IMG/VR virus record: IMGVR_UViG_3300042507_004106
DNA from: a virus
Lineage: Duplodnaviria > Caudoviricetes
Direction: 5' to 3' (one strand)
Length of the DNA: 64,000 nucleotides
The translations under genes and the position numbers were made by a program. The notes beneath the pieces are model-generated. The model worked only from the letters and a program-made list of their open reading frames with translations, had not been told where the DNA came from and did not search any database. Shown piece by piece: positions 14,493 through 35,230 of the stretch. The first letter of the stretch is position 1, and each line of letters starts with the position of its first letter.

Positions 14493-14565
14493 TAGGCGTG
14501 GTCGGATTCGAACCGACCCTGGAGGCGTTTTAAGCGCCCTGTCTCTGCCGCTGGACTACACGCCC
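14493..14565 (-). tRNA. tRNA-Leu(UAA) with short variable loop
   Basis: GGGCGTG/CACGCCT acceptor, A73; GGGCG-CTTAAAA-CGCCT anticodon arm; GTCGG-TTCGAAT-CCGAC T-arm; CCA not encoded. Confidence 0.85.
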
Positions 14566-34683: not shown

Positions 34684-34712
34684 AAAAAAAGGAGGGGATC
34701 AACCCTCCTTTT
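34684..34712 (-). terminator. Rho-independent terminator closing the peptide operon
   Basis: AAGGAGGG/CCCTCCTT stem followed by a U-tract. Confidence 0.75.
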
Positions 34713-34715
34713 GAT

Positions 34716-34799
34716 TTACTTATAAATCCACTGGATATACAGTGATAATAAAGTAATAAAAGTAGCAGACGCAACTGTAATTTGTGCGATGATTAACAT
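34716..34799 (-). CDS. 27-aa hydrophobic single-TM peptide
   Basis: MLIIAQITVASATFITLLSLYIQWIYK; TGATG coupling. Confidence 0.55.
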   Translation of the reverse strand: MLIIAQITVASATFITLLSLYIQWIYK

Positions 34800-34894
34800 C
34801 ACTTTGCCCCTGCGTTTACAAGCAGTGCTTGATGACGACGATTCTCTTTCTGCTTTTGCTCTTTGATGAGTTGAAGCACATTGAGTTTTTTCAT
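34799..34894 (-). CDS. 31-aa basic peptide, possibly a GS inactivating factor (IF7)-like core
   Basis: MKKLNVLQLIKEQKQKENRRHQALLVNAGAK; TGATG coupling; GGAGG upstream. Confidence 0.55.
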   Translation of the reverse strand: MKKLNVLQLIKEQKQKENRRHQALLVNAGAK

Positions 34895-35031
34895 CACTTA
34901 TGACCCTCCTTTACAAACTTAACACCACGATAGGTTTCGTTGTATTGTTGGGGTTGTTGCATCATTTGCTGTTGATACTCAAGACGCTTTTGAGTATCAT
35001 ACTCTACGCCTCTGTATACGACTTTAGACAT
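34894..35031 (-). CDS. 45-aa DUF4278-like peptide with two YRGV motifs, Gln-rich
   Basis: MSKVVYRGVEYDTQKRLEYQQQMMQQPQQYNETYRGVKFVKEGHK; AAGGAG RBS. Confidence 0.8.
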   Translation of the reverse strand: MSKVVYRGVEYDTQKRLEYQQQMMQQPQQYNETYRGVKFVKEGHK

Positions 35032-35063
35032 TAGGTTTTCTCCTTAGTTTTTTAAGTTAAAGA

Positions 35064-35163
35064 GCGTTCCTTCAGTCGGCGTTTGCGTTCGCTATTTGCG
35101 AATAGCGAATGAACGATCCGTTCCGCGTCGGCTTACTTCCGTCAGAGTTTTCTCTGATGAACG
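35064..35163 (-). ncRNA. Glutamine riboswitch (glnA/Downstream-peptide family), tandem or nested aptamer
   Basis: Two CGTTCAT-hairpin-...GCCGAC...GGAACG units; glnA E-loop strands GGAAGTAAG and CTGAAG present; lies 5' of a YRGV peptide. Confidence 0.8.
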
Positions 35164-35170
35164 TAAGGTC

Positions 35171-35199
35171 ATTATAGACCTTTTCAAGGTATATATCAA
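35171..35199 (-). promoter_or_regulatory. Sigma70-type promoter TTGATA-N17-TATAAT; predicted start just before the riboswitch
   Basis: Predicted +1 near 35164, one nucleotide before the first CGTTC. Confidence 0.7.
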
Positions 35200-35200
35200 T

Positions 35201-35230
35201 ATAAAATTGTATAATCTGTTACAATTTTAT
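35201..35230. promoter_or_regulatory. NtcA binding site (TGTA-N8-TACA) within an 11-bp perfect inverted repeat
   Basis: ATAAAATTGTA-TAATCTGT-TACAATTTTAT. Confidence 0.75.

Follow-up and report, generated by a model that had tools for sequence, protein, structure and literature searches.

Two glutamine aptamer-like units adjoin in the leader of a small phage operon, and the question raised by this locus is which strand of which unit pairs with which. The locus lies in a stretch of 64,000 nucleotides (nt) from the IMG/VR virus record IMGVR_UViG_3300042507_004106 (Duplodnaviria; Caudoviricetes), the whole of which was analysed (hereafter, the window). The element, present as a single copy in the window, comprises two glnA-like units read on the minus strand from 35163 down to 35064 (the reverse complement of positions 35064..35163). 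We consider it likely to be a nested double glutamine riboswitch in which both cores bind glutamine, acting as an ON switch for the operon. The nested fold itself is very probable from sequence comparison: as shown by covariation, the outer part would form one complete glutamine-I aptamer, whose P3 helix encloses a second, permuted core. Our inferences are that the ligand is bound, that the two sites cooperate, that the switch is of the ON type, and where the transcript starts.

Two units that each hold one E-loop strand

In transcript order, unit 1 consists of CGUUCA, a hairpin, ACGGAAGUA, AGCCGACGC and GGAACG, and unit 2 of CGUUCA, a hairpin, ACGCAAA, CGCCGACU and GAAGGAACG. Only the 5' E-loop strand is found in unit 1, which lacks GAAG before GGAACG, and only the 3' strand in unit 2, where ACGCAAA replaces ACGGAAGUA. 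A preliminary description of this DNA, made from its letters, had given the same two-unit layout with the E-loop strands split between the units; the exact minus-strand sequence bears out the layout, and the split is seen both in the sequence and in the alignments to the Rfam glutamine-I model (RF01739). The identity of the units as glutamine aptamers also stands, as RF01739 matches both halves, at 35117..35061 (33.1 bits, E = 2.4e-05) and at 35163..35119 (21.4 bits, E = 0.042). The covariance-model check proposed there had a mixed outcome: both scores are below the RF01739 gathering score of 35 bits, and the glutamine-II model (RF01704) gave no match in the element up to E = 10. The RF01739 model cannot span the insert well, and standard scans under-call such elements because each half scores below the Rfam cut-off.

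Homologues were collected in two ways. Three pattern scans of viral contigs, together with isolate cyanophages, gave 158 distinct elements; 57 compact elements were aligned with MAFFT, and independent contrasts were counted on a tree of the 220 nt that follow the element downstream. A second sample of 80 viral loci was retrieved by the downstream protein alone (hereafter, the protein-anchored sample). It contains 64 nested elements (62 of them have short linkers, the other 2 a linker of 21 nt), 12 single ordinary aptamers with a short hairpin (GG-GAAA-CC or CC-AUUU-GG) at the place of the inner core, and 4 loci with a long insert ahead of unit 2, the 5' part of which is beyond the flank. The junction 15-mer was present in at least 120 viral contigs in a pattern scan; with this count and the 158 parsed elements, the occurrence is far above chance. 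Homologous elements are found in the phages S-PM2, S-CREM1, DSL-LC02 and S-SRM01, and that of S-CREM1 has 92% identity over 117 nt of the window region. Among the matches listed from a gapped-pattern scan of genome contigs, only one was real, the others being chance: a contig of 3767 bases in an Acetobacteraceae metagenome-assembled genome (L291, JBIPLY010000594.1) carries the nested riboswitch with an insert and a DUF4278 open reading frame (ORF), and is almost certainly mis-binned cyanophage DNA.

Covariation supports a nested fold

The strands of the outer aptamer are listed below, with ligand-contacting bases numbered by analogy with PMC6698751 and PMC11477058.

35159..35163, minus strand: 5' strand of outer P1, CGUUC, pairing with 35069..35065
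35143..35156, minus strand: P2 hairpin (CAGAG, AAAA, CUCUG), with 5/5 pairs changing on both sides across homologues
35134..35142, minus strand: outer junction ACGGAAGUA, which is the 5' strand of the E-loop; G35140 is the equivalent of ligand-contacting G22, and G35139 pairs with C35064
35126..35133, minus strand: 5' strand of P3, AGCCGACG, pairing with 35081..35074 (in the window through 6 Watson-Crick pairs, with 2 A.C mismatches)
35074..35081, minus strand: 3' strand of P3, CGCCGACU, assigned from covariation with the 5' strand
35070..35073, minus strand: GAAG, the 3' E-loop strand of the outer aptamer, assigned from sequence and the Rfam alignment
35064..35069, minus strand: 3' strand of outer P1, GAACG (35069..35065), followed by C35064, the partner of G35139; assigned from covariation

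In the solved glutamine riboswitches, the ligand inserts the base after ACG into the end of P1, where it pairs with the base after GAACG (G23:C60 in glutamine-I, C19:G41 in glutamine-II) (PMC11477058, PMC6698751), and covariation of this long-range pair in the family has been noted (PMC7657543). In the window, the junction base concerned is G in unit 1 and C in unit 2, and the base following GAACG is G at the first GAACG and C at the last, so that pairing within each unit gives G.G and C.C and crossed pairing gives G:C and C:G. The same is seen across the family. The outer crossed pair is Watson-Crick in all 158 homologues (C:G 92, G:C 66), with 33 CG, 24 GC and none unpaired in the corresponding alignment columns (37:117), and 9/9 independent contrasts are compensating. 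For the inner crossed pair, 127 of the 158 are Watson-Crick (C:G 107, G:C 18, U:A 2), 3 are G.U and 28 are mismatched, 24 of the mismatches having a 4-nt linker NNGN in which the later G could be the partner; 7/7 contrasts compensate. The side-by-side pairs are mismatched in 81 and 85 of the 158 and paired in only 38.6% and 44.6% of cells in the 57-element alignment.

P3 joins the stretch after GUA in unit 1 to the stretch before GAAGG in unit 2, and covaries. Its types among homologues include AGUCG/CGACU, AGUCA/UGACU, GGACGAC/GCCGCCC, GGACGG/CCGCCC and CGCCGACU/AGCCGACG, as well as AGCCGACK with MGCCGACU, in which the eighth pair is U:A, G:C or A:U; several of these types are unable to form local hairpins. 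In the 57-sequence alignment, pair 1 is AU in 38, GC in 7, GU in 6 and CG in 5 sequences, and pair 8 is UA in 21, GC in 16 and AU in 3, with none unpaired. About 12.7 of 13 independent contrasts at pair 8 and about 10.7 of 14 at pair 1 were compensating, none at pair 1 going the opposite way. The register is specific, as 78% of positions are paired compared with 9-35% when the strands are slid. The local P3 pairs of the side-by-side structure are 68-71% paired in the same alignment.

Over the 57 compact elements, 90.4% of cells are paired in the nested structure, 19 of its pairs have changed on both sides, and its covariation score is 0.300, versus 0.104 in shuffles and at most 0.067 in slid registers. 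By nearest-neighbour energies it is the more stable fold in 55/57 sequences (-22.4 versus -15.4 kcal/mol in the window). Both strands of the outer P1 are invariant in 57/57 aligned sequences, and their pairing was assigned from the covariation of P3 and the long-range pair; it is also used by the free minimum-energy fold of the 100-nt element, which has the nested topology. In this arrangement the first CGUUC would pair with the last GAACG as the outer P1, and this helix together with P2, the E-loop strands and P3 (AGCCGACG with CGCCGACU) would make a complete glutamine-I aptamer. As in RF01739, P1 CGUUC/GAACG is followed by A and the P2 hairpin, and the E-loop strands are separated by P3, here a long-range helix of 8 base pairs (bp). 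The E-loop is built from ACGGAAGUA and GAAGG, which lie in different units and face each other only in the nested fold. The motif [AG]AAGGAACG is retained in the parsed homologues, though the pattern used for parsing contained it. In the window 60 nt separate the halves of the outer aptamer, and in insert-bearing relatives several hundred nt.

Covariation on homologues had been named as a check in the preliminary description and supports the nested structure (158 elements, 57-sequence alignment). That each unit has its own P2 hairpin is confirmed by the changes on both sides at 5/5 pairs of P2 and 7/8 of P2', while the claim that each has its own P1 finds no support, considering the mismatched side-by-side long-range pairs and the poorly paired local P3. 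Serial aptamers would each have their own P1, P3 and long-range pair, and such a set was not found. Of the two architectures put forward there, the cross-unit E-loop does join the units, yet it belongs to the outer aptamer and is not a link between side-by-side aptamers; the outer aptamer with an inserted branch fits the covariation, but the branch is more than a branch, being a permuted second core.

Single-aptamer relatives are observed among the protein-anchored loci (L481, L504, L509, L514, L544-L549; upstream of residues 701-835): the 12 such loci precede close homologues of the first downstream gene, and in L481 a GAAA loop stands in for the inner module. Six of the 12 have the fifth P1 pair reversed, with CGUUG facing CAACG; this is a rare case of covariation, as P1 is otherwise invariant.

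A permuted inner core

At its far end P3 leads into another three-way junction with the order C, GGAACG, loop GAU, CGUUCA, U, P2' and ACGCAAA, which would be a permuted core without the E-loop. Its parts are as follows.

35110..35124, minus strand: inner P1' (GGAACG, loop GAU, CGUUCA), the P1 strands of the aptamer in reversed order with a 3-nt loop
35089..35108, minus strand: P2' hairpin of 8 bp with loop CGCA, with 7/8 pairs changing on both sides across homologues
35082..35088, minus strand: inner junction ACGCAAA, without an E-loop strand; G35086 corresponds to the ligand-contacting G, and C35085 pairs with G35118

The inner core is a circular permutation, in which the 3' tail is joined to the 5' end by two bases and the chain is opened in P3. 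Its long-range pair forms between the P1' loop base G35118 and C35085. The ligand-contacting bases C1, G2, G22, C58 and G59 fall on 35163, 35162, 35140, 35066 and 35065 in the outer core and on 35115, 35114, 35086, 35120 and 35119 in the inner core, and those of both cores are invariant or nearly so in the 57-sequence alignment. GGAACG and CGUUCA are unchanged in every nested element of the protein-anchored sample, in which P2, P2', P3 and the linker vary. The linkers in that sample are GAU, GAA, GGA, GUA, CAUUAU and others.

Both hairpins are sites of insertion in relatives. In 70 of the 158 elements the P2' loop carries an insert of 130-200 nt (e.g., L003:438-590 in DSL-LC02, L004:271-438 in S-SRM01), which is absent from the window. 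The insert starts with AUG just past CGUUCAUCY and encodes a conserved peptide of about 50 amino acids (ME.L.LTCLQAQ...DAKAD). The P2' 3' strand, ACGCAAA and the P3 3' strand supply the final codons of this peptide, and the U-GA at the border of P3 and the E-loop its UGA stop. A similar insert of about 190-225 nt is found in P2 in 40 of the 158. Translating such ORFs must be in competition with the riboswitch fold. The closing loop of P1' can hold inserts as well (L482, L497, L500, L548 at about 400-700; L535, L540), which are 21 nt long in two loci. In four loci the insert is a long coding-looking stretch ending in ...SIRRWKKSR, a stop and GGU directly before CGUUCA, possibly a mobile gene, and the 5' half of the riboswitch is beyond the 700-nt flank.

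The hairpin of 22 nt at P2' in the window (UUCGCUAUU-CGCA-AAUAGCGAA, 35088-35109, minus strand) is near-identical in 42 relatives at P2' and in 14 at P2 (L017, L021, L054 and L067 bear on this), and other relatives have unrelated GC-rich hairpins there. That its sequence is conserved and does not covary suggests a module that is mobile or bound by protein, or else the scar left where an insert was lost.

Expression platform and downstream genes

The features downstream of the aptamers are as follows.

35040..35064, minus strand: expression platform, in which CUCUUUA (35064..35058) pairs with the Shine-Dalgarno sequence UAAGGAG (35046..35040) in minimum-energy folds
34894..35031, minus strand: ORF1, 45 codons, for a 'YRG' peptide that is DUF4278-like (19.1 bits against PF14105, which is below the 25.3-bit cut-off)
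34799..34897, minus strand: ORF2, 31-32 codons, with a start that shares bases with the stop of ORF1 (UGAUG) and has AAGGAGG 8 nt upstream of it
34687..34712, minus strand: predicted terminator-like hairpin and U run closing the operon

C35064 is common to the 7-bp anti-Shine-Dalgarno helix and to the long-range pair with G35139, so glutamine should free the ribosome site. Among the relatives shown that have C as the last base, the same helix of 7-8 bp is predicted in 12/14. A translational ON switch is fairly probable on these grounds. In the proposed mechanism, glutamine would be bound by both cores, the folding of the inner core would help to bring the outer strands together, and binding would pull C35064 out of the anti-Shine-Dalgarno helix; the freed site would turn on ORF1, a DUF4278/IF17-like peptide, together with the translationally coupled ORF2. 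That both glutamine sites are functional has, in our estimate, slightly better than an even chance, and that the interleaved cores both bind and fold interdependently, giving a steep, cooperative response, somewhat less than an even one. Relatives with G as the last base (e.g., L001:514-550, L013, L024) lack CUCUUUA and may be regulated in another way than the window. In some of them, a GGG...CCC hairpin upstream of the ribosome site includes the base of the long-range pair.

DUF4278 marks IF17, a glutamine-synthetase inactivating factor, and in Synechocystis its gene gifB is under a glutamine-I ON switch, proposed to act likewise by freeing the ribosome site; the association of glutamine-I leaders with DUF4278 genes has been described (PMC6212724). 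The position of the element as a 5' leader before such a gene is the one known for RF01739. Relatives of ORF1 reach 32.4 bits against PF14105, above the cut-off, and nearly all of those listed among the 142 distinct downstream ORFs extracted begin with M-x-x-V-x-YRG-x-x-Y-D-T. ORF2 is a conserved basic peptide (..LNVLQLIKEQKQKENRRHQALL..) coupled to ORF1; searches of Pfam, NCBIfam and the ESM Atlas gave no match to it. An ORF2-like segment is fused behind the DUF4278 N-terminal YRG motif in S-CREM1 (L002:510-653), L027:2553-2681 and L049:497-625, and an ORF2-like gene is the first ORF after the riboswitch in two further loci (L203, L459). ORF2 could be a counterpart of the C-terminal, synthetase-binding part of IF17, and the two ORFs together may represent a split IF17.

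The genes around the operon are by translation phoH-like, thyX-like and glutaredoxin-like, and the blastn matches are Synechococcus myoviruses, from which we take the window to be a T4-like cyanophage. Its DNA is present in lake-water metagenomes. The sole Rfam match in the window at the gathering threshold is a tRNA gene at 14493-14565 (minus strand, 51.1 bits).

Upstream control and transcript start

Three features were recognized ahead of the element.

35209..35222, minus strand: NtcA-type box GTA-N8-TAC, with its centre about 52 nt upstream of the first P1 base
35171..35199, minus strand: sigma-70-like promoter, TTGATA (35199..35194), 17 nt and TATAAT (35176..35171), with 11/12 matches
35166..35181, minus strand: inverted repeat AGGTC/GACCT flanking TATAAT, 2 nt upstream of P1 (1-3 nt among relatives)

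A perfect GTAN8TAC is found within 100 nt upstream of P1 in 112/146 distinct homologues, versus 4.1 expected from shuffles, mostly with its centre 51-55 nt from P1. The host NtcA probably also acts on the promoter, by activation or repression, which would place transcription under host nitrogen control in addition to the switch. The promoter layout is the same in relatives. With its end at 35171, the promoter stops seven bases short of the first C of CGUUC, and a transcript start at about A35164, just before the first CGUUC, is plausible. Stems of at least 5 bp at TATAAT occur in 75/110 distinct homologues, versus about 22 in shuffles, and are lineage-specific (AGGTC/GACCT, TGTGTTA/TAACACA, GAGGT/ACCTC, AGGTGC/GCACCT); the inverted repeat would be an RNA hairpin abutting P1 if the transcript starts further upstream, and otherwise a feature at the DNA level. 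Metatranscriptome contigs from four studies cover relatives of 34797..35180 at 85-99% similarity, and one extends upstream of the predicted start, though such contigs cannot prove start, strand or transcription.

Alternative explanations

The same strands could be arranged in other ways. If the element were a classical tandem, as it was aligned in 2010, two independent aptamers would follow one another, each closed by a P1 of its own. As the P1 strands are identical, 5 bp result under either pairing, the first GAACG is transcribed ahead of the last one, there are two adjacent Rfam matches, and the 2010 glnA alignment takes unit 2 as the aptamer and leaves unit 1 in the flank. Against these stand the long-range pairs mismatched in about half of the 158 homologues, and as G.G and C.C in the window, the local P3 hairpins, of which types like AGUCGC are unable to fold alone, the E-loop strand that each unit lacks, and the higher computed energy in 55/57 sequences; we find this reading scarcely credible. 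A less static version has the RNA alternate between the side-by-side and the nested register, glutamine selecting the latter, so that the register change and not the stabilisation of P1 is the regulatory event. By sequence the two P1 pairings are isoenergetic, the side-by-side form can fold first in transcription, and with its mismatched long-range pairs in the window that form should not hold the ligand. It is nevertheless quite improbable: the CGUUC/GAACG repeat is already explained by ligand binding in both cores, no side-by-side helix shows covariation, and without ligand the nested form is the more stable by about 7 kcal/mol.

A third possibility accepts the nested fold and lets only the outer aptamer sense glutamine; the inner core would then be a degenerate 'ghost', useful as a scaffold in folding or to frame the inserts of relatives. 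Ghost aptamers are indeed kept by singlet glycine riboswitches. The inner junction is without an E-loop, the loop closing P1' is very short, 28/158 homologues are without the canonical inner long-range pair at the first loop base, and the same ORF is served by a single aptamer in 12/80 loci, so one site suffices. A scaffold helix would be free to covary, yet GGAACG/CGUUCA never change in the protein-anchored sample; moreover, the changes of the inner pair compensate (G:C 18, U:A 2; contrasts 7/7), all five ligand-contacting bases are kept, and glutamine-II binds its ligand without an E-loop (PMC6698751). We regard a silent inner core as unlikely.

Several points weigh against the nested double riboswitch as we describe it. 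Both E-loop strands are missing from the inner core, the inner pair is non-canonical in the 28 homologues just mentioned, and a 3-nt loop over the end of P1' beside the long-range pair may be sterically tight. Rfam gives no riboswitch match in the element at the gathering threshold. Most homologues were retrieved by patterns that fix GGAACG and CGTTCA, which makes the invariance of the inner P1' among them one of construction, and the protein-anchored loci are limited in diversity, all 80 having at least 91% identity to ORF1. As the tree was built from neighbouring DNA, swaps of whole leaders between phages could mimic or inflate independent co-changes. The anti-Shine-Dalgarno helix is conserved but hardly covaries, and the relatives with G as the last base have a different downstream sequence with no obvious equivalent of it.

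Comparison with known systems

With the glutamine-I riboswitches (RF01739; Synechocystis gifB leader, PMC6212724) the element has in common P1 CGUUC/GAACG, P2, the E-loop strands ACGGAAGUA/GAAGG and P3, as well as the G:C long-range pair after P1, the position before a DUF4278 gene and, probably, ON switching by release of the ribosome site. P3 is a short hairpin there, whereas here it is a long-range helix enclosing a second core, and the element is below the Rfam cut-off; the glutamine-I structure of Ren et al. 2015 was used as described in PMC6698751 and PMC11477058. The inner core resembles glutamine-II (RF01704; PMC6698751) in its ACGCA junction, the polarity of the C:G pair, the absence of an E-loop and the same ligand-contacting bases. 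It differs in having a three-way junction and permuted strands, and in lacking the glutamine-II P2 helix around GGAACG and the pseudoknot, with the inner GGAACG lying 5' of its own CGUUC and a 3-nt loop between the two.

The 'tandem' glnA RNAs (PMC2864571) are the same sequences, and the junction GGAACGGAUCGUUCA is found in rows of the 2010 glnA alignment, in which unit 2 was aligned as an aptamer and unit 1 left in the flank. The S-CREM1 element was annotated as a single glnA riboswitch of 99 nt (44.0 bits) with an earlier Rfam release (PMC9964418). These sources list the RNAs as tandem or as one hit without a fold, while the covariation here indicates interleaved cores. A survey in 2017 reported only two glutamine riboswitches in phages (PMC5473149). 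No published description of a nested or permuted glutamine riboswitch emerged from the literature searched, which excluded Ames and Breaker 2011 and Ren et al. 2015. The element adds a new structural variant to an established riboswitch class; the variant is widespread among cyanophages and escapes notice at the Rfam threshold. If the cooperative two-core reading is true, at least the phage-type 'tandem' glnA RNAs catalogued since 2010 would be interlocked, not serial. With an NtcA box, a glutamine switch and a relative of the glutamine-synthetase inactivating factors, cyanophages appear to carry the nitrogen logic of their hosts, and the three together point to phage control of host nitrogen assimilation in infection.

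Tandem riboswitches are a textbook route to sharper or combinatorial control, and all well-studied ones are, to our knowledge, serial. The tandem glycine riboswitch has serial amino-acid aptamers in one leader, touching by tertiary contacts. Two aptamers per leader, with cooperativity or a degenerate partner possible, are thus shared with the tandem and singlet glycine riboswitches, whereas the strands of the two cores here are interleaved and a helix is shared. A permuted aptamer inside the stem of its own copy would be a different design for a two-site sensor, and it would put to the test how far the glutamine fold accommodates joined ends and the lack of an E-loop. Circularly permuted natural RNAs are known among hammerhead and twister ribozyme types and in two-piece tmRNA, which have the same core fold with another strand order. 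Those are separate genes that differ in permutation type, while here the permuted copy would lie inside an unpermuted copy of the same aptamer and would, if true, be the first natural riboswitch aptamer in circularly permuted form.

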